From contig CAWAGG010000006.1 of assembly GCA_963781595.1 (NCBI GenBank), positions 522,201 to 586,200 on the forward strand: a stretch of 64,000 nucleotides of DNA, written 5' to 3'. Within the stretch, counting starts at the first letter, position 1. Each line of letters starts with the position of its first letter. The notes under the pieces were generated by a model, which was not told where the DNA came from, did no database searches, and was given only the letters and a program-made list of their open reading frames with translations. Position numbers and translations under genes: made by a program. The DNA is from an uncultured Actinomycetota bacterium (GTDB lineage: Bacteria; Actinomycetota; UBA4738). Positions 53,188 to 62,483 of this stretch are shown here, piece after piece.

Positions 53188-53589
53188 ATGACGACGCACG
53201 GCACCGAGCGCTTCGAGTTCGACTTCGATCCCCGCTACCGTCCGCTGCTCGCCGGCCTGACGGTCACGCCGGGCCGGGCCTGGGTCGAACTCGGCGACGA
53301 GCTCGTCGTCCGGTTCGGGCGATGGGAGCTGCGGACGCCCGTGTCGAACATCGCCGACGTGTGCATCACCGGGCCATACATGGCGGCCCGGGCGATCGGT
53401 CTTCGGCTGTCCCTCACGGACCACGGGGTCACGTTCGGGACGACCGCGCGAGGCGGTGCATGCGCGACGTTCCACCAGCCCGTTCCCGGCGTCTCGTGGC
53501 TCGGCCTCGTGCGGCACCCGGGCGCGACGGTCACGGTGAAGGACCCGGAGGCGTTCGCATCGGCGGTTCGCGCCAGGATCGAACGCTAG
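53188..53589 (+). CDS. Hypothetical protein, divergent and start-overlapping with MTase
   Basis: CATGATG: ATG 53185/53188 on + strand, ATG of MTase on - strand at 53184-53186. Confidence 0.4.
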   Translation: MTTHGTERFEFDFDPRYRPLLAGLTVTPGRAWVELGDELVVRFGRWELRTPVSNIADVCITGPYMAARAIGLRLSLTDHGVTFGTTARGGACATFHQPVPGVSWLGLVRHPGATVTVKDPEAFASAVRARIER

Positions 53590-53630
53590 CCGGCGGATGA
53601 CGCAAGCCCCCGGCCGCACGGTGTGGTTCG

Positions 53631-54050
53631 TCACCCTGCCTGACTGAGTTCGACCAGATGTCCGTCGGGGTCGCGCAGGAAGCAGCGCGTCTCCCAGGGG
53701 CTCGCGAGCGGCGGGGTGAGGAACCCCGCGCCGCGCTGCCTGAGCGTCTCGTAGGCCTCCTGGCAGTCGGGAACCCGGATCGTGAACGCCACGCTGACAG
53801 TGTCCGGATCGGCCGGAGGCGCGAACGTCACGGTCGGCTTGTCGTCGGTCGGCGGTCCACCGGTCACGAGCAACAGCCAGGTCCCCAGGAACCGCAACAC
53901 GATCGACGTGCCGCCGTACTCGCGGTAGATCTCCGCCCCCAGCACGTCCCGGTAGAAGTCGCGCGAGCGGTCGAGTTCGCTCACGACCAGGATCGTCGTG
54001 ATCTCCATGCCGTCGACGGGGAACGTACCGCTCATGGCGTTCGGCATCAT
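53631..54050 (-). CDS. VOC/glyoxalase-bleomycin resistance family protein
   Basis: MEITTILVVSELDRSRDFYRDVLGA...DPDGHLVEL. Confidence 0.75.
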   Translation of the reverse strand: MMPNAMSGTFPVDGMEITTILVVSELDRSRDFYRDVLGAEIYREYGGTSIVLRFLGTWLLLVTGGPPTDDKPTVTFAPPADPDTVSVAFTIRVPDCQEAYETLRQRGAGFLTPPLASPWETRCFLRDPDGHLVELSQAG

Positions 54051-54091
54051 CGCACGGCGTCCGCCCGGCCGCGTCTGCGAGCATCCCGGAC

Positions 54092-55027
54092 GTGACGGGC
54101 GCGGAGGCCGACGGGATCGGGGACGGCGGGGGCCTGCGGGCGAGCCCGCTCGGCGTGCTGGCGATCGCCGTCCCGGTCGTCGGCTGGTCGCTCGCGAACC
54201 TGATCGTGAAGATCGTGCCGGTCCCGGCGCTGACGTTCGCGTTCTGGCGCCTGTGGCTGGGCGCCGCGGTGATGCTGACGGTCGCGGCGCTCGCGCGCCG
54301 GCCGCTCACCCGCGACGTCCTGCGAGCCGGGATCCCGGGCGGGATCCTGTTCGGGCTGAACATCGTGTTCTTCTTCGTCGCGCTGAAGGAGACGGCGGTC
54401 GCCGACGTCCTGGTGATCGCCGCGCTCCAACCCGCGCTGACCGTGCTGGTCGCCGGCCGGCTCTTCGGCGAACACGTGACGCGCCGCGAGCTGTGGTTCG
54501 TGTTCGCCTCCGTCGCCGGCGTGGTCGTGTTCGTGATCGGCTCGAGCGGGACGCCGGCCTGGAGCCTCCGCGGGGATCTGTTCGCGGTGCTCTCGCTCGC
54601 CGTGTTCTTCGTGTACTTCCTGTGGTCGAAGCGCGTCCGGTCCGACGTCGCGGCGATCGAGTACATGGCGACGGTCACGCTCGTCGCCGCGGTCGTCGTG
54701 ACGCCACTGGCGATCGTCGGGCCGGGCATCTCGGGGATGCGCGGGGCCGACTGGTGGTGGCTCGTCCTGTTCGTGGCGATCGCTCAGGGCGGGCATCTCC
54801 TGCTCGCGTGGGCGCACCCGTACGTGGACGCGACCGTCTCGTCGTTGCTGCTCCTCGGCGAGCCCCCGATCTCCGCGATCGCGGCGTTCGTGGTGCTCGG
54901 CGAGACCGTCACATGGCTCGGCGTGGCCGGTGGGCTGGCCGCGCTGGCGTGCCTGGTCGTCGTCGTCCGGAGCGCGACCGCGGCGGGCACGACCCTCCCT
55001 GGAGCCACCGAGGCCGCATCCCCCTGA
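54092..55027 (+). CDS. DMT-superfamily (EamA-like) transporter
   Basis: 10 TM, duplicated EamA halves. Confidence 0.75.
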   Translation: MTGAEADGIGDGGGLRASPLGVLAIAVPVVGWSLANLIVKIVPVPALTFAFWRLWLGAAVMLTVAALARRPLTRDVLRAGIPGGILFGLNIVFFFVALKETAVADVLVIAALQPALTVLVAGRLFGEHVTRRELWFVFASVAGVVVFVIGSSGTPAWSLRGDLFAVLSLAVFFVYFLWSKRVRSDVAAIEYMATVTLVAAVVVTPLAIVGPGISGMRGADWWWLVLFVAIAQGGHLLLAWAHPYVDATVSSLLLLGEPPISAIAAFVVLGETVTWLGVAGGLAALACLVVVVRSATAAGTTLPGATEAASP

Positions 55028-55128
55028 GGTCCGTCAGGGAGCATCCCCGCCGACCACCGGTCGGCGCCAGCACCGCATCTGCACGCCGAAGCGATGAAGG
55101 ACCGCGGCCGGATGCCGATACCTCTGGC

Positions 55129-56220
55129 ATGGAACCGAACCGACCCCTCGCCTATCGCGTGCTGGTCGTCGAGGACGACGGCGTCTCCGCCGCGTTCCTC
55201 CGGGGCGTCCTCGAGAAAGGCGGACGCTTCGCAGTCACGCACACCGGAGACGCCGAACGAGCCGGCATGTTCCTCGCGACGCAGGACTGGGACCTGCTGA
55301 TAGTCGACGTCCGGCTGCCCGGCATGACCGGGCTCGAACTGCTCCGGATCCTCCCCCCCGAACAGCAGCCCCCGACGATCGTGATCACGGGAGCCCCGAC
55401 GCTCGACGTCGCCGTCGACGCCCTGCGCGCCGAGGCCGACGAGTTCCTCGCGAAGCCGGTCGAGCCCGACGTGCTGCTCGCGAAGGCCGCGGCCCTCGCT
55501 GGCCGGCCCCGGCGGCGGCCCGAGGCCGTCCGCGTGCTCGCGATCGGCGCGCACCCGGACGACGTGGAGATCGGGTGCGCCGGGAGCCTGCTGGGGCATC
55601 GTGCGGCCGGCGACGCGGTCGCGATCCTGACGATGACGCAGGGCGAGAGCGGTGGCGACCGCGACTGGCGGGCGCGGGAGTCGGAACGCTCGGCCACGTA
55701 CCTGGGCGCCCAGCTGTTCCTGCGGGACCTGGAGGACACCGGGATCCCCGCGGGGAACCCGACCGTCGGCATGATCGAGGAGGTCGTTGCGGAATTCGGG
55801 CCGAACGTCGTCTACACGCACAGCATCAACGACCTGCACCAGGACCACCGCGCGGTCCATCGCGCCGCGATGGTCGCCGTCCGCGCCGTCCCGCACGTCT
55901 ACTGCTTCCAGAGCCCGTCTGCGACGGTCGAGTTCCGGCCGACGCGGTTCATCCCGATCGACGGGCACCTCGACGGGAAGCTCGAGGCGATCCGGGCGTT
56001 CGCGTCGCAGACCGCCAGCCGCGACTACCTCGACGAGGAGCTGATCCGTTCGACGGCACGGTACTGGGGCCGCTTCGGGGGCGGACGGTACGCCGAACCG
56101 CTCGAGGTCGTTCGCGACCGCGCCGCCGCCGACCCGCTCCGGTTGCCGGCCACGCGCAGCGCCGCCGAGGCCGCAGCCCGGGCCGGCGCGGCGACCGGGG
56201 GCGACCATGCCGCAGCCTGA
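55129..56220 (+). CDS. Response-regulator receiver (REC) domain fused to PIG-L/LmbE-family N-acetylglucosaminyl deacetylase
   Basis: REC: VVEDD, LLIVDVRLPGMTG, ITG, LAKPV; LmbE: LAIGAHPDDVEIGCAGSL and HQDHRAVH. Confidence 0.75.
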   Translation: MEPNRPLAYRVLVVEDDGVSAAFLRGVLEKGGRFAVTHTGDAERAGMFLATQDWDLLIVDVRLPGMTGLELLRILPPEQQPPTIVITGAPTLDVAVDALRAEADEFLAKPVEPDVLLAKAAALAGRPRRRPEAVRVLAIGAHPDDVEIGCAGSLLGHRAAGDAVAILTMTQGESGGDRDWRARESERSATYLGAQLFLRDLEDTGIPAGNPTVGMIEEVVAEFGPNVVYTHSINDLHQDHRAVHRAAMVAVRAVPHVYCFQSPSATVEFRPTRFIPIDGHLDGKLEAIRAFASQTASRDYLDEELIRSTARYWGRFGGGRYAEPLEVVRDRAAADPLRLPATRSAAEAAARAGAATGGDHAAA

Positions 56221-57301
56221 CGACGCGACGACCGACCGGCGCTCGGATCCCCGTGACCGGGTCCCGCGGGTCCTGGTGACCGGGGCGGGTGGTCCCGCCG
56301 CGATCGCGTTCCTGCGCGCGGTGGGCGACGGGAGCGCCGACCTGTTCGCGGCGGACATCGACCCCTATGCGGCCGGGCTCTACCTCGTCCCGGAGGCGCG
56401 GCGCGTGCTGCTCCCCAGGGGCGACGACTCTGGCTTCGCAGGCGGGCTCCTCGCCGTGTGCGCCGACGAACGGATCGACCTGGTCGTGCCCACGGTGGAC
56501 GTTGAGCTGCTGCCGATCGCCCGGGTCCGCCGCCGGCTGGAGGTTGCCGGGACCCGCGCGGTCCTTGCTTCGATCGAGACGCTCGTCGTGTCGCTCGACA
56601 AGTGGCGCCTCGTGAGCGTCTGCCGGGACGCCGTCGCGGTGCCGGCGACGACGCTGATGGACGGACGGTCGAACGTGCCGTTCGAACCGCCGTTCGTCGT
56701 GAAGCCGCGGGTGGGCAGCGGGTCGCGCGGCGTCCGGCTCGTGGAGGACCCGGCCGAGCTGGCGAGCCTCCCGGGCGACGGGTCGATGATCGCGCAGGCG
56801 TACCTGCCCGGCGAGGAGTATTCGCTGGACGTACTGGCGAGGTCCGACGGGCACGTGGTTACCGTCGTGCCGCGCGTCCGGTTGAAGGTGGACTCGGGCG
56901 TGTCCGTCGCGGGTCGAACCGTGCACGACCCGGAGCTGGAGACGTTCGGCATGCGCGTCGCGGCGCGCATCAACCTGACGACCGTCGCGAACGTGCAGTG
57001 CCGTCGCGACGCGTACGGCCGCCCGGTCCTGCTGGAGGTGAACCCGCGGTTCTCCGGCGCGATGCCGCTCACGGTCGCGAGCGGCGTGAACATGCCAGCG
57101 CTGGCGCTCGCCGATGCGCTCGGCCTGCCCGTGCCCGACACGATCGCCTTCCGCGAGACGGCCATGGTCCGGTTCCTGGAGGACCGGTTCCCGCCGGTCG
57201 AGGAGATGGACGCCCTGGCACGCGGGCGCGGCGGGCTGCAGCGTCTGGGGACGGACGCCGCGGCGACGATGGAGTCGGCGATGGCCGTGGGCGAACGATG
57301 A
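56207..57301 (+). CDS. ATP-grasp domain protein (carboxylate-amine ligase-like)
   Basis: FVVKPRVGSGSRGVRLVED...AQAYLPGEEYSLDVL...LEVNPRFSGAMP. Confidence 0.7.
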   Translation: MPQPDDATTDRRSDPRDRVPRVLVTGAGGPAAIAFLRAVGDGSADLFAADIDPYAAGLYLVPEARRVLLPRGDDSGFAGGLLAVCADERIDLVVPTVDVELLPIARVRRRLEVAGTRAVLASIETLVVSLDKWRLVSVCRDAVAVPATTLMDGRSNVPFEPPFVVKPRVGSGSRGVRLVEDPAELASLPGDGSMIAQAYLPGEEYSLDVLARSDGHVVTVVPRVRLKVDSGVSVAGRTVHDPELETFGMRVAARINLTTVANVQCRRDAYGRPVLLEVNPRFSGAMPLTVASGVNMPALALADALGLPVPDTIAFRETAMVRFLEDRFPPVEEMDALARGRGGLQRLGTDAAATMESAMAVGER

Positions 57302-58047
57302 ACGCGAACGGCGACGTCCTTCGCCAGGACTGGCACGTCCACTCGACGTTCTCCGACGGCCGCTCCCGGCCCTCCGAGAACCTCACGCGCGCCGCCGAGG
57401 TCGGCCTCTTCGAGGTCTGCTTCGTCGACCACGTCCGCCGGTACACGACGTGGGTGCCGGACTTCGTCGAGGAGGTCGAACGGCTGCGGCGCGAGACCTC
57501 GGTGAAGGTGCACTGTTCGGTCGAGGCGAAGATCCTGGACCGTGCGGGAACGCTGGACCTGCCCCGCGCCGTCGCGGGACTCGACGGGCTCGACCTCGTC
57601 CACGTGGCCGATCACCGGTTCCCGATGGGCTTCGGACCGGCCGACCCCGACGAGGTGCGTCGGGCGCTGGCCCGCGGGACCGCGCAGGCCTCCGACCTGA
57701 TCGAGTGCCTGGTCGAAGCGACCGAACGCGCCCTGGCCCGCGTCCCGCGCGCGCTGCTGGCGCATCTGTTCAGCATCCTGCCGAAGGTCGGCCTGGACGA
57801 ATCCGAGGTTCCCGACGACGCGCTGTCATCGCTGGCCGCCGCCGCGGCGAGCGCAGGCGCACTGGTCGAGGTCAACGAGAAGTGGCGTTGTCCCTCCCCG
57901 CGGACGCTCCGAGCGTTCCGCGACGCGGGGGTCGGGATCGTCGCGGGCAGCGACGCCCACGAGCCGAACGCGATCGGCAGCTACGGCGGCTACGTGGCTC
58001 GCACGCTCGCGGACCTGGCTCCCGCACCCGCGGGGCGGGAGGCGTGA
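57298..58047 (+). CDS. PHP-domain metal-dependent phosphoesterase
   Basis: DWHVHSTFSDG (HxH), ...VDHV..., GSDAHEP motifs; ATGA overlap with previous gene. Confidence 0.7.
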   Translation: MNANGDVLRQDWHVHSTFSDGRSRPSENLTRAAEVGLFEVCFVDHVRRYTTWVPDFVEEVERLRRETSVKVHCSVEAKILDRAGTLDLPRAVAGLDGLDLVHVADHRFPMGFGPADPDEVRRALARGTAQASDLIECLVEATERALARVPRALLAHLFSILPKVGLDESEVPDDALSSLAAAAASAGALVEVNEKWRCPSPRTLRAFRDAGVGIVAGSDAHEPNAIGSYGGYVARTLADLAPAPAGREA

Positions 58048-58051
58048 GGCG

Positions 58052-59566
58052 GTGCTGCATGCCGCGGCGCGAGCGGGCGTCTGGATCCTGATCGGCTTCG
58101 TCCTGCTTGGCGCCGTCCCGATGCTGATCGGCGCGTACGAGTTCGCCCTGATCGGCCTGCATCGCTGGCGGAACCACTTCGATCGGGTCGAACCCTTCCT
58201 GCCACGCGTCGCGGTCCTGATCCCGGCGTGGAACGAGGTCTCCGTGATCGGCGCGTCGATCGACCGGATGATGGCGATGGACTACCCGGCGAGCCGCCTG
58301 CGCGTCTACGTCGTCGACGACGCGAGCACCGACGACACGCAGTTCGTCGTTGCCGCGGCGGCGTCCTGGTACCCGGGCCGCGTGATCCACCTCCGGCGAG
58401 CGCACGGCGGCGCGGGCAAGGCGCACACGCTGAACCACGGCCTGCGCGTCCTGCTCGACGACGACTGGATGGAAGCGCTGCTGATCACGGACGCGGATGT
58501 GCAGTTCGAACCCGACGCCCTGCGGAAGATGACGCGGCACCTCACCGACCCGGGTGTCGGCGCCGTCACGGCGTTCATCAAGGAGGGCAGCCGTCCGGGC
58601 AACTCGATGACCCGGTTCATCGGCTACGAATACGTCACCGCGCAGGCCGCGGCCCGGCGGTCGCAGAACGTGCTGGGCGCGCAGGCGTGCCTGGCCGGCG
58701 GCGCGCAGCTGCACACGAGGGCGAACCTGGAGGCGATCGGCGGCCGGATCGACACGACCACGCTCGCCGAGGATACGGTCACGACGTTCCTCACCCAGCT
58801 CGCGGGGCGGCGGGTGATCTTCGACGGTGACGCGGTCGCGTGGGCCGAGGAGCCCGGCTCGATCCGCGGCCTGTGGGCACAGCGCGTCCGGTGGGCCCGG
58901 GGCAACGTCCAGGTGACCAGGCGGTTCCGGCACGTGTGGTTCCGGCCGCGCTGGTTCGGCCCGCGGCCCGCGCACCGGCTCGGCGGCGTGAGCTTCGGCG
59001 TGATCTGGTTCAGCCTCTTCCTGCAGCCGCTCCTGATGCTGCTGGCGTCGGCGAGCCTCGTGGCGCTGTACCTGATCGACGCGCCCGCGTCGTGGCGCGT
59101 GTTCCATCCGCTGTGGATCTGCAACGTGGTGACGTTCGCGTTCATCACGGCGTTCGCGCTGTCGCTCGATCCGAGCACCGCCCGGCGAACCTGGAAGCAG
59201 GCGATCACGTTCCCAGGGCTGGTCTCGCTCGCGATCCTCGTCTACGCGGCGTTCCCGGGGGCGGTCCGATGGGGCGCCGACGGCCTGATGCGCCTCACGG
59301 GCGTGCACCCGGGACCGGTTGCGGCGCACGCGCTGGTGCTCTTCGTCTACGCCTGGCTCGGCGCGTCGATGTTCGTCTCGTACCTCGCGAAGCGTCTCGA
59401 GGGCCGGCGTGGCGGACGGTTCTGGAGTCCGCTGTTCCTGTACGTCGGCGGCTACGGGCCGCTGCTGTGCTCCGTGACGCTCGCGGCGTATTGGCGCGAG
59501 CTGCGGCGGGCCGAGATGCGGTGGGAGAAGACCGAGAAGGAGGGGAAGATGGCGGTAGCGGCGTGA
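58052..59566 (+). CDS. Processive family-2 glycosyltransferase (PgaC/IcaA/NodC/HAS-like synthase), polytopic membrane protein
   Basis: VVDDASTDDT, TDADVQFEPD, LAED, QRVRWARG (QxxRW); 2 N-terminal and about 4-5 C-terminal TM. Confidence 0.8.
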   Translation: MLHAAARAGVWILIGFVLLGAVPMLIGAYEFALIGLHRWRNHFDRVEPFLPRVAVLIPAWNEVSVIGASIDRMMAMDYPASRLRVYVVDDASTDDTQFVVAAAASWYPGRVIHLRRAHGGAGKAHTLNHGLRVLLDDDWMEALLITDADVQFEPDALRKMTRHLTDPGVGAVTAFIKEGSRPGNSMTRFIGYEYVTAQAAARRSQNVLGAQACLAGGAQLHTRANLEAIGGRIDTTTLAEDTVTTFLTQLAGRRVIFDGDAVAWAEEPGSIRGLWAQRVRWARGNVQVTRRFRHVWFRPRWFGPRPAHRLGGVSFGVIWFSLFLQPLLMLLASASLVALYLIDAPASWRVFHPLWICNVVTFAFITAFALSLDPSTARRTWKQAITFPGLVSLAILVYAAFPGAVRWGADGLMRLTGVHPGPVAAHALVLFVYAWLGASMFVSYLAKRLEGRRGGRFWSPLFLYVGGYGPLLCSVTLAAYWRELRRAEMRWEKTEKEGKMAVAA

Positions 59567-59568
59567 GC

Positions 59569-59712
59569 ATGAACGGGTCGGCGAACGATCGTCGCGCCTT
59601 CGAGGAGGACCTGGTGAAGGACCTCCGGTACGAACGGTCCCTCCCGTGGCGGGAGCTCCTGGCGCTCGGGGTGGTCGTCGTGGTGGTCGTGCTGCACCGG
59701 CTGTTCGGGTGA
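59569..59712 (+). CDS. Small single-TM peptide (47 aa) overlapping GT2 stop
   Basis: MNGSANDRRAFEEDLVKDLRYERSLPWRELLALGVVVVVVVLHRLFG; start overlaps TGA of synthase. Confidence 0.35.
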   Translation: MNGSANDRRAFEEDLVKDLRYERSLPWRELLALGVVVVVVVLHRLFG

Positions 59713-59746
59713 CGCGAAGCGCCCGGCGCGGATCGGTAAAGCGGCT

Positions 59747-60994
59747 TTACGATCCCTTCGGGGCGGCGTTCGGAAGTCTGAGCTGGCCGGGGCGGCGTTC
59801 GACGTGCCGCACGAAGTGCTTGCCGAGCGTAACGGCCTGGTCCTGGTAGGACGAACCGAGGTCCCATCCGTAGAGGCGGTCGGGGATCGCCGCCATCCGT
59901 TCGAACGCGAGCTTGCAGACGGGCTGGCCGTGTTCGATCAGGAACGGGACGTCGTGCGCGCGGACCTCGAGCGCCGCCCGCGAGCCGACGGTCCCACCCT
60001 CCGGCGCGTGGCCGAACCCCGGATCGAAGAACCCCGCGTAATGCGTCCGGAGCTCGCCGCTGGTCGGGTCGTACGCGGTCATCTCGGACGCGACACTGGG
60101 CGGGATGCGGACGGCGTCGACGGACATCAGCAGGTAGAACTCCTCGGGCTCGAGGACCACGCCGCCGTGTTCGCCGCGGACGGGTTCCCAGAAGTCGTCG
60201 GGCGCGTGGTCGATCCGTGACATGTCGACGAGCTGGCTGTTCTTCTTCGCTCGGTAGCCGACCGAGCCGGTCCCGTCGGGCTCGAGGTCGAGGCCGAGGA
60301 ACACGCCGCCGCCCCGGATCAGGATGTCGCCCTCCTCGCGCGGCGAGCCGCCGCGGAACACGATCGGCGTCTCGGCGTGCAACGCCCGCACGTCGTCGCC
60401 GGACAGGCGAGTGTCCCCGCGGGCCAGCCTGAGCTGGTTCAGCGAGAGCCCCTCGCGGACCCGGATCGTGAACGAGAGCGGCACGACCTCCAGGTACAGC
60501 CGTCCGCGGTAGCCGGGGCGGATGTCGTCGAACGTCTGACCTTCGTCCGTGATGATCCGGGTGAACACGTCCAGCCGTCCGGTGGAGCTCTTCGGGTTCG
60601 CGCGGGCGTGCACGTCGTCGGGGAGGTCGAGCTCTTCGAGCAGCGGGATCAGGTAGGGACGGTTCGTCTCCAGGACCCCGCCCTCGCGGGTGAGGTCGAC
60701 CTCGCCCATCGCCAGGGTCTTCAGCCGGTCCTCGACCGGCGCGCGGCTGGGGAGGAACGAACACTGGAGCCTGTGCGCGACCGGGCCGATGCGGAGGTCG
60801 AGGCTCGCGGGCTGGAAGCTCGCGGGCGGGATCGGGGTCGTCGCTCCGACCAGCGCAGCTTCGGCGGCGGCTTCGAGCCACTGGATCGGGAAGACCCCGT
60901 CGCCGTGGAACGGGAATCGTTTCACCTGGGCATCGTAGAGCAGACCGGGCCGGTGGCCGTTCGCCGCACGAGGACCCTGTCCGGGAGCGGGTCG
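59747..60994 (-). CDS. 2'-deoxycytidine 5'-triphosphate deaminase (DCD, long-form) family protein
   Basis: LLYDAQVKRF... long dCTP-deaminase-like pattern; GTG start inferred, upstream extension spurious. Confidence 0.55.
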   Translation of the reverse strand, partial: RPAPGQGPRAANGHRPGLLYDAQVKRFPFHGDGVFPIQWLEAAAEAALVGATTPIPPASFQPASLDLRIGPVAHRLQCSFLPSRAPVEDRLKTLAMGEVDLTREGGVLETNRPYLIPLLEELDLPDDVHARANPKSSTGRLDVFTRIITDEGQTFDDIRPGYRGRLYLEVVPLSFTIRVREGLSLNQLRLARGDTRLSGDDVRALHAETPIVFRGGSPREEGDILIRGGGVFLGLDLEPDGTGSVGYRAKKNSQLVDMSRIDHAPDDFWEPVRGEHGGVVLEPEEFYLLMSVDAVRIPPSVASEMTAYDPTSGELRTHYAGFFDPGFGHAPEGGTVGSRAALEVRAHDVPFLIEHGQPVCKLAFERMAAIPDRLYGWDLGSSYQDQAVTLGKHFVRHVERRPGQLRLPNAAPKGS

Positions 60995-61084
60995 CACGGT
61001 CCGAGCCCGCGATGGACGGCGGCGCTCACTGGAGCACCCTCCTTGCGTGACTCGGGGTCGCTGCTGGCTGAAGCTCCCGCTTGA

Positions 61085-61277
61085 ACCCCCGGTGACCGCG
61101 GGGGGAGCGCCAGTGGCGCTCGCCCCTCGAGGGCCAGGATGAGATCCGCGCACCCCCGCGGGCCGGGACGCTTAGACCGGCTACAGGGAAACGCGCGTGA
61201 GAGCGCCAGTCAGTGAGCAACCGGCCCGGCGTCCCGACACCGCAGGGTGCCCCATCGTCGCAGGGAGGAGGGATGAG
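61085..61277 (+). ncRNA. Candidate IS110 bridge RNA in element left end
   Basis: Non-coding, multiple hairpins (e.g. GAGCGCC-agt-GGCGCTC at about 61109-61125; CCCCCGgtgaccGCGGGGG); position upstream of recombinase matches IS110-subgroup architecture. Confidence 0.3.
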
Positions 61278-62483
61278 GTGAAGCAGCTCTGGTGCGGGCT
61301 CGACTGGGCCAGCAGGACGCACGCCGTGTGCGTCGTCGACGACGCGGGTGAGATCCGGGCCCGCTTCGAGGTCCCCGACACCGGCAAGTCCTTCGCCGGC
61401 CTGGTGAAGCGCCTGGTGGAGCTGGAGGTCGCTGGCGTGGCGATCGAACGTCCCGACGGTCCCCTGGTGGAGGCCCTGCTCGAGGCCGGGCTCACGGTGC
61501 ACATGATCCCGCCGTCGATGCTGAAAGCGGTCCGGGCCCGCTACGGCGCGGCCGGGGCCAAGTCCGATCCCGGAGACGCGTTCGTCCTCGCCGACCTGCT
61601 CCGGACCGATCATCACCGGCTCGCGCCGCTCACGACCGACAGCCCGGCCACGAAGGGCCTGCGGGCGCTGACCCGGACCCGTAAGGATCTGGTAGCGGCC
61701 AGGGTGGCCCTGACCAACCAGCTCCTGGCGCAGCTGGGGGTGTGCTTCCCCGGCGCGGTGGGCCTGTTCGGCGACCTGCACTCGGCCGTCGCGGCGGCGT
61801 TCCTGCACCGCTACCCCACGGCGGCCAGGGCCGCCTCGCTCACCGAAGGCCGGCTGGCCGCGTTCCTGCGGCGGATCCACTACTGCGGGCGCACCCCCGT
61901 CACCGAGCTCCTCCGGCGGATCAAGGAGGCACCCCCGGCCGGCCTCGGTGCCGAGGAGGACGGGTCCAGGGCCGCCTGCGTCCTGGCGCTGGTGGAGGCG
62001 ATCCGGGCCTGTGAGGGCCGGGCCCGCGAGCTCGAGGCCGAGATCGTCGAGCGTCTGGAGATCCATCCCGACGCCCACGTGTTCACGAGCCTGCCGCGGG
62101 CCGGCCGCGGCGTCCGGGCCGCGACGCTGCTCGCCGAGATCGGCGACGTGAGGCAGCGGTTCCCCGACGCCGAGAGCTTGATGGCCCTCGCCGGCGCCGC
62201 TCCGGTCACCAGGGCCTCCGGCAAGTACCGGGTCGTCGCCTTCCGGTGGGCCTGCGACAAGAAGCTCCGCGCGGCCGTCGTGGAGTTCGCCGACGACTCC
62301 CGTCGCGCCTCCCCATGGGCCCGCGGGATCTACGAGCGCTCGATGGCGAGGGGCCATACGCATCCGCACGCGGTGCGCATCCTCGCCCGGGCCTGGCTCC
62401 GGGTGATCTGGCGTTGCTGGCAGGACGGCGCCGCGTACGACATCACCAAGCATCGAGGGGCGGTGGTGCCCATCGCCGCTTGA
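61278..62483 (+). CDS. IS110-family transposase/recombinase (DEDD RuvC-like N-domain + Tnp C-domain)
   Basis: GLDWASRTHAVCVVDDAGE; ...AIERPDG...; C-terminal GxxPxxxxSGxxx serine region; GGGAGGAGGG RBS before GTG. Confidence 0.85.
   Translation: MKQLWCGLDWASRTHAVCVVDDAGEIRARFEVPDTGKSFAGLVKRLVELEVAGVAIERPDGPLVEALLEAGLTVHMIPPSMLKAVRARYGAAGAKSDPGDAFVLADLLRTDHHRLAPLTTDSPATKGLRALTRTRKDLVAARVALTNQLLAQLGVCFPGAVGLFGDLHSAVAAAFLHRYPTAARAASLTEGRLAAFLRRIHYCGRTPVTELLRRIKEAPPAGLGAEEDGSRAACVLALVEAIRACEGRARELEAEIVERLEIHPDAHVFTSLPRAGRGVRAATLLAEIGDVRQRFPDAESLMALAGAAPVTRASGKYRVVAFRWACDKKLRAAVVEFADDSRRASPWARGIYERSMARGHTHPHAVRILARAWLRVIWRCWQDGAAYDITKHRGAVVPIAA

Follow-up and report, generated by a model that had tools for sequence, protein, structure and literature searches.

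The window analyzed here, a 64,000-nucleotide stretch of actinobacterial DNA (C6:522201-586200), contains an open reading frame in which a receiver domain is followed directly by an LmbE-type deacetylase (hereafter REC-LmbE), and it raises the question of whether the deacetylase is a genuine output of the receiver, upon what it would act, and from where the receiver would obtain its phosphate. Response regulators having enzymatic outputs are well known, CheB, PleD, and RpfG among them. The evidence presented here makes it probable that REC-LmbE is a response regulator carrying a catalytically competent cytoplasmic zinc N-deacetylase and heading an operon in which D60-gated deacetylation of a GlcNAc compound feeds an ATP-grasp ligase, with the kinase missing at this locus. 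The features on which the argument is built are collected in Table 1.

Table 1. Coordinates of the REC-LmbE gene, its domains, and neighboring genes (positions in the window unless a related locus is named by its L number).
Feature	Position	Strand	Description	Evidence
REC-LmbE gene	55129..56220	+	363 aa plus stop; response regulator with deacetylase output	Translation; Pfam PF00072 and PF02585; frame plot; 125 homologous loci
Receiver domain	55153..55500	+	Residues 9-124, full (beta-alpha)5 fold; D60 codon 55306-55308	AlphaFold2 secondary structure; 36-sequence alignment; 125 homologs
Arg-rich linker	55501..55530	+	Residues 125-134, 10 residues, from receiver helix α5 to first deacetylase strand	Model; 36-sequence alignment
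LmbE/PIG-L deacetylase domain	55531..56118	+	Residues 135-330; AHPDD 55549-55563, HQDH 55837-55848	Pfam; 125 homologs; Foldseek
ATP-grasp ligase	56207..57301	+	14-nt overlap with REC-LmbE stop	PF15632, PF02655; NCBIfam PRK12767-like
PHP-family phosphoesterase	57298..58047	+	ATGA overlap with ATP-grasp gene	PF02811
Membrane GT2 synthase	58052..59566	+	Polytopic, PgaC/NodC/BcsA-like, QRVRW motif, 4-nt gap	Pfam; NCBIfam
Single-pass membrane peptide, 47 aa	59569..59712	+	3' of GT2 gene	tblastn conservation
EamA-family transporter	54092..55027	+	Upstream of operon	Pfam EamA
dCTP-deaminase-like gene (-) and IS110 transposase (+)	59747..62483	mixed	Occupy the position of the kinase in relatives	NCBIfam; Pfam
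Proteobacterial variant genes (His_Phos_1, TPR, GH81)	L042 12005-12616; L043 9293-9925, 1208-3358; L035 6291-8855			

The interval assigned to REC-LmbE translates without a stop into a single protein, and a plot of G+C content at third codon positions reveals one unbroken coding frame on the forward strand from ∼55100 to 56100, from which the frames of the upstream EamA gene and the downstream ATP-grasp gene differ. Open frames are long because the DNA is of high G+C content (71%), and the nominal ORF around the gene opens at 53998; the ATG at 55129 is the first start codon in this frame past the EamA stop, and homologs start there too. The protein matches the Pfam models Response_reg (PF00072; residues 11–119, E 3.7e-21, 75.8 bits versus a cut-off of 30.2) and PIG-L (PF02585; residues 137–250, E 1.3e-23, 84.3 bits versus a cut-off of 28.2). 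These are its sole Pfam domains, and a CheB methylesterase output domain was not found in it. A preliminary description, made from the sequence alone, proposed a canonical receiver joined to a complete LmbE/PIG-L hydrolase, with an enzyme as output in place of a DNA-binding domain; both parts of that proposal are borne out by the Pfam matches, which exceed their cut-offs, and by the presence of every residue it named.

Residues characteristic of receivers occur in the window protein as E15-D16-D17, D60 (within LLIVDV), T87, F106, and K109-P110, and the deacetylase motifs AHPDD and HQDH are found at residues 141–145 and 237–240, respectively. The AlphaFold2 model (mean pLDDT 85.7, with the receiver mostly above 90) displays five receiver strand-helix units, from β1 at residues 9–14 to α5 at 113–124, followed by an LmbE fold at 135–330 and a disordered tail; its pTM of 0.64 leaves the geometry between receiver and deacetylase uncertain. 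Within the short linker, R126 is invariant and R129 nearly invariant in an alignment of 36 sequences. The top Foldseek matches of the C-terminal domain are BC1534, diacetylchitobiose deacetylase, TT1542, and BshB, with E of about 1e-14, and no solved structure spanning both a receiver and an LmbE domain was found in the structure and Foldseek comparison. The protein scores 84.2 bits against the NCBIfam equivalog for BshB1 (TIGR04001), well below its cut-off of 182.5. A homodimer prediction returned a score of 0.06 relative to a mark of 0.42 and is counted neither for nor against any reading.

Conservation of the fused protein was assessed in several samples. When 5.8 billion protein clusters were searched, 2142 matched, and among the 120 matches listed all contain both Pfam domains at 53–79% identity to the window protein. 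Genomes and metagenomes together provided 125 fused loci; the two closest homologs, P0002 (79% identity) and P0003 (72% identity), were not among the loci recovered by the metagenome scan. Conservation of the phospho-acceptor had been set beforehand as a check on the receiver, and D60 proves to be retained in all 125 homologs; K109 is retained in 124, Thr or Ser at position 87 likewise in 124, and the DD pair in 103 of the 108 with data. On the deacetylase side H142, D144, D145, E147, D239, and H240 occur in 125 of 125, and zinc and catalytic residues overall in 123–125. The 36-sequence alignment is invariant at D16, D17, D60, T87, K109, and P110 of the receiver, and at H142, P143, D144, D145, E147, H237, Q238, D239, and H240 of the deacetylase.

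The fused architecture, with the same short linker, extends through Actinomycetota to Legionella, Polyangiaceae, and others, and the ESM Atlas contains at least 11 clusters having it, mostly from Actinomycetota. The gene is nonetheless sparse in the phylum: the fused form is absent from all 40 of the family or order relatives examined, and full-length REC-LmbE was detected in at least two other genomes in an even sample of 400 from the phylum, a lower bound given that five candidates were scored per genome. Cassettes more distant than those with the fused gene comprise a receiver-less LmbE, GT2, and ATP-grasp. Among three family relatives without the fused gene (L085, L086, and L087, from genomes G019, G016, and G007, respectively), G019 and G016 contain such a cassette, with about 30% identity for GT2 and about 36% for ATP-grasp, and G007 yields matches for LmbE and GT2 only.

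REC-LmbE opens an operon of five translationally coupled genes, in which it is followed by the ATP-grasp ligase, the PHP phosphatase, the membrane GT2 synthase, and the 47-aa membrane peptide, all junctions being overlaps or gaps of 2–4 nt. The biosynthetic genes accompany the fusion in relatives as well, since in related loci with enough flanking sequence ATP-grasp lies downstream in 85 of 97, PHP in 75 of 92, and GT2 in 66 of 81 (81–88%). The surroundings are of a different kind. The upstream EamA gene has no match in any related locus, and the flanking glyoxalase, methyltransferase, and dCTP deaminase genes are not conserved beside the cassette there. The dCTP-deaminase-like gene (59747-61153, reverse strand) is of the PRK07559 type with two DCD domains, and its longest ORF includes about 84 extra N-terminal residues, so that the true start may be further in. 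An Rfam scan of 53400-60000 detected no RNA family, and a consensus scan detected no sigma-70-like promoter; the scan for terminator-like sites returned one, within the EamA gene, a number below chance expectation.

The GT2 protein of the window looks like a processive synthase, its best NCBIfam match being PgaC_IcaA at 106.5 bits, far from the equivalog cut-off of 422.3. In Leifsonia the GT2 gene is not at the cassette locus, and an orthologue with 51–52% identity is present elsewhere in all three genomes checked; there the 47-aa peptide comes after the PHP gene. By tblastn, this peptide is located as in the window in more than 20 loci, Legionella included, and it is composed of a C-terminal membrane helix preceded by a juxtamembrane motif, (R/K)xER(R/S)L. 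Proteobacterial cassettes depart from the actinobacterial arrangement in that two of them (L042 and L043) have a non-homologous His_Phos_1 phosphatase in place of PHP, and in the gain of a TPR protein of 850–1030 aa. In Legionella drozanskii a GH81 beta-1,3-glucanase gene adjoins GT2, a hint that something other than PNAG may be the polymer.

The origin of the phosphate is most readily approached through these relatives. A kinase adjoins the cassette in 37 of 49 related loci (about 76%; 33 plus 4 with a hybrid kinase of the type found at locus L002), the count covering loci whose flanks extend 2.8 kb or more upstream and 6.8 kb or more downstream. The kinase gene is located either directly 5' of REC-LmbE or just past GT2 and the peptide, shares their strand with few exceptions, and belongs to one of two lineages. 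The first has the composition PAS-HisKA-HATPase, often with a single-domain receiver before the kinase; 28 of these cassette-adjacent kinases, drawn from several actinobacterial orders (Streptosporangiaceae, Mycobacteriales, Thermoleophilia, Cellulomonas, and Microbacteriaceae), group in a single clade (SH-aLRT 97) that is marked by its own DHp signature. The second consists of CHASE3-HAMP-PAS hybrid kinases and occurs where REC-LmbE most resembles that of the window (L002, L091, L092, L094-L096, L101, and L116). At two loci, L040 and L044, the genes immediately after REC-LmbE encode a single receiver and a PAS kinase, and biosynthetic genes are lacking altogether; this arrangement ties the kinase to the receiver-deacetylase itself. 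Locus L040 (7905-17392) is further distinguished by four paralogous PAS kinases and three single-domain receivers after REC-LmbE, and by having no ATP-grasp, PHP, or GT2 gene.

The window is free of HisKA and HATPase_c matches, and tblastn with the cassette-linked kinases located no kinase remnant in it, in agreement with the preliminary description, which had reported no histidine kinase here; the nearest match to a kinase-type ATPase is 114 kb from REC-LmbE. The search was extended to the whole assembly (4.12 Mb, 85% complete), as the preliminary description had recommended, and did not deliver a cognate kinase: neither the PAS-HisKA nor the CHASE3 hybrid lineage was found, and none of the 22 HisKA kinases in the assembly belongs to the main cassette clade. 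The highest-ranking BLAST match to that clade in this genome is a PAS kinase at C6:1,046,690-1,048,957 with 30–38% identity, which falls outside the clade, is devoid of its DHp signature, and can be taken as a lead only. Against the L002-type kinase, the top match in this genome has 31% identity over 213 residues. A hybrid kinase with an Hpt domain (C6:1,528,368-1,531,601) groups weakly (SH-aLRT 83–93) with hybrid kinases near the cassettes of L006, L015, L019, and L033; it adjoins its own REC-GGDEF gene and is likewise a lead only. Orphan status, as claimed in the preliminary description, accordingly holds for the window and for the 85%-complete genome and does not hold for the family. Because about three quarters of relatives encode an adjacent kinase and neither lineage was found in this window or in the 85%-complete genome, the orphan state is a local loss or uncoupling and not a property of the family.

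Other signaling genes of the assembly are recorded here in their own right. The region of the Hpt hybrid kinase (C6:1527271-1534590, or L089 5271-12590) encodes the REC-GGDEF protein, the kinase itself, which has 1077 aa in the order PAS3-HisKA-HATPase-REC-REC-Hpt and holds the only Hpt domain found in the assembly, and a zinc-ribbon-cyclase-AAA-TPR protein. Eight paralogous HisKA kinases form a tight clade (SH-aLRT 100; C6 positions 69827, 1629208, 1877527, 1962535, 2534702, 2611462, 2713711, and 2978494), six of them without a receiver within 4 kb. In total 14 receivers have no kinase within 4 kb.

Since the cassette kinase is missing in this genome, the receiver would be fed by an unlinked kinase or by acetyl-phosphate, or else left unphosphorylated. 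Acetyl-phosphate is a possible phosphodonor because an acetate kinase gene is present; Pta was not found in the 85%-complete assembly. The last of these outcomes corresponds to the strongest competing explanation, according to which the receiver is no phospho-switch in this genome, the enzyme being constitutive or permanently unphosphorylated and the receiver merely a structural or oligomerization module. The failure to find a cassette-type kinase in window or genome is consistent with such disuse, as is the position of the window protein on a long branch of the tree. A precedent is provided by three relatives, L046 (9845-11047, Streptomyces), L047 (9467-10702, Serinicoccus), and L049 (8751-9950, Nocardioidaceae), in which the 170–190-aa region N-terminal to LmbE falls below the Pfam receiver model. 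The DD pair, acceptor Asp, and Lys are lost from L047 and L049; L046 is without the Lys and has kept the acceptor Asp. No kinase was found near any of the three, all of which retain ATP-grasp along with the deacetylase, and PHP and GT2 are kept as well at L046 and L047 only, leaving these two with the whole cassette. These relatives show that the deacetylase can persist without phosphorylation. Nevertheless, the window protein does not resemble them. Its five phosphorylation residues are intact, as they are in the two closest homologs, and within this lineage (P0001-P0003) the receivers share 67–77% identity with all key residues kept, the deacetylases sharing 80–87%. The divergence of the receiver, compared with that expected from the divergence of LmbE (0.42 against 0.47), is about 0.6 sd beyond expectation, an uninformative difference by which the receiver is not clearly over-diverged. 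Judged from its sequence, then, the window receiver looks maintained. Moreover, the incompleteness of the assembly, the 11 kinases in it having no receiver within 4 kb, and the acetate kinase gene all leave room for another phosphodonor, and disuse of the switch is considered unlikely, although it is the most serious of the alternatives.

Most probably REC-LmbE carries out a cytoplasmic de-N-acetylation that is gated by phosphorylation and supplies the ATP-grasp ligase with a free amine. The signal would originate, for most relatives, from the dedicated sensor kinase encoded beside the cassette. Phosphorylation of D60 would rearrange the α4-β5-α5 face of the receiver, and the rearranged receiver may in turn switch the deacetylase in the manner of CheB, a change that could be transmitted because helix α5 lies only about 17 residues before the zinc ligand H142. 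The activated enzyme would strip the N-acetyl group off a GlcNAc-bearing intermediate, the ATP-grasp ligase would then acylate the freed amine, and a dephosphorylation step would form part of the pathway. That step is probably metabolic and not one of signaling, because proteobacterial cassettes have a phosphatase of another fold in place of PHP, and because PHP persists in L046 and L047, where the receiver is decayed and no kinase lies nearby; on the latter grounds PHP was also rejected as a signaling phosphatase resembling SixA or CpsB.

The nature of the substrate is constrained by topology. The preliminary description suggested that the product of the synthase, or a small-molecule GlcNAc conjugate, is deacetylated. 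The three soluble enzymes of the operon must be cytoplasmic, and a processive GT2 would extrude its polymer. Because of this separation the extruded synthase product is a topologically awkward and thus questionable substrate, and a GlcNAc-bearing small molecule, lipid, or primer would fit better. It is tentatively possible, with the greater weight still against so specific a proposal, that the cassette makes an undescribed N-acylated, perhaps aminoacylated, glucosamine conjugate by mycothiol-like chemistry with kinase-switched deacetylation, rewired in this genome to an unlinked kinase or acetyl-phosphate. Candidates for such a conjugate are a small metabolite, the head group of a lipid, and a molecule that primes or caps the polymer made by GT2.

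The same topological difficulty lends something to an alternative in which REC-LmbE acts mainly in signaling, either as a phosphate sink or as a ligand-sensing regulator of the synthase, with the LmbE fold binding a GlcNAc compound without turnover, given that the GT2 product may be beyond the reach of a cytoplasmic enzyme. The single-domain receiver often found beside the same kinase also indicates branched phosphotransfer. However, hardly any of 125 sequences deviates at the zinc ligands, the catalytic base, or the oxyanion histidine, a pattern that points to catalysis, and tight coupling to an ATP-grasp ligase needing a free amine fits real deacetylation, so that a purely signaling role appears improbable. 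As for an assembly or frameshift artefact joining separate receiver and deacetylase genes, which the preliminary description had itself raised and for which nothing speaks beyond the long open frames of high-GC DNA, it is refuted by the conservation of architecture and short linker in all 120 cluster matches listed, across diverse genomes and many taxa, and by the continuity of the coding frame.

Phosphorylation-gated deacetylation by REC-LmbE can be compared with several known systems, the first being CheB together with CheY and CheA. REC-LmbE and CheB each join a receiver directly to a hydrolase, and in both cases a single kinase may serve a single-domain receiver and a receiver-enzyme, as the gene arrangement suggests for L013, L040, and L044. 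By analogy, CheB is the natural model for activation of REC-LmbE through phosphorylation-relieved inhibition. The outputs differ, however: that of CheB is an esterase acting on protein (methylesterase/deamidase), whereas that of REC-LmbE is, from its sequence, an LmbE zinc amidohydrolase predicted to act on the N-acetyl group of a sugar. The kinase also differs, CheA being replaced by a PAS-HisKA or CHASE3 hybrid kinase, and chemotaxis genes are absent. REC-LmbE may thus work like CheB without being a member of the CheB family.

Stand-alone LmbE enzymes (BshB/BC1534, TT1542, the archaeal diacetylchitobiose deacetylase, MshB, PIG-L, and HpnK) are cytoplasmic-face de-N-acetylases of GlcNAc glycosides. 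They have the fold and the AHPDD and HxDH motifs in common with REC-LmbE and, in contrast to it, have no receiver. Some of them belong to pathways of similar logic: mycothiol (MshA/A2/B/C), bacillithiol (BshA/B/C), and NodC/NodB/NodA synthesis each combine a glycosyltransferase, in some cases a phosphatase, a de-N-acetylase, and re-acylation of the liberated amine, either ATP-dependent or by acyl transfer, and the cassette would follow the same sequence of steps. Its GT2, PHP, and ATP-grasp proteins are, however, non-homologous to the Msh and Bsh glycosyltransferase, phosphatase, and ligase; its transferase is a polytopic membrane protein, unlike theirs, and the pathway would be under two-component control at the level of the enzyme. 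A likeness to the PNAG systems PgaABCD and IcaADBC is seen in the similarity of the GT2 to PgaC and IcaA above all others, in the small membrane partner after the synthase, and in the presence of a deacetylase at the locus. Yet PgaB and IcaB are extracytoplasmic CE4 enzymes, whereas the deacetylase of the cassette is cytoplasmic and of the LmbE type; the PNAG systems contain nothing that corresponds to the ATP-grasp and phosphatase genes; and PNAG synthesis is controlled via c-di-GMP, the cassette presumably via phosphotransfer.

REC-LmbE is an enzyme-output response regulator, a known kind of protein, with a new output and dedicated kinase lineages. A full-text literature search found no study of the receiver-LmbE fusion or of the cassette, and direct control of a carbohydrate de-N-acetylase by a receiver is unstudied as far as that search could find. 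If the kinase-switched glucosamine conjugate were to prove correct, it would constitute the first case in which phosphotransfer directly governs a sugar-editing enzyme. The four-enzyme cassette has a scattered distribution in Actinomycetota and extends to Legionella and other Proteobacteria. The family, which has kinase lineages of its own and an active site without variation, is a good experimental target. Working it out would reveal a new protein-level regulation of envelope or glycoconjugate chemistry, and might reveal a new glucosamine-derived molecule.

The local peculiarity of the window copy is that its kinase was not found, and the copy adds mainly this kinase-less state to what its relatives display. 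Taken together with the kinase-bearing and decayed-receiver relatives, it forms a natural series for gain, rewiring, and loss of the switch. Two further variants of the fused gene were observed among the related loci. In a member of Frankiaceae (L045 9320-11047) two receivers precede the deacetylase in a REC-REC-LmbE arrangement, and a Rhodoglobus locus (L016 4647-6888) has two REC-LmbE paralogs in tandem.
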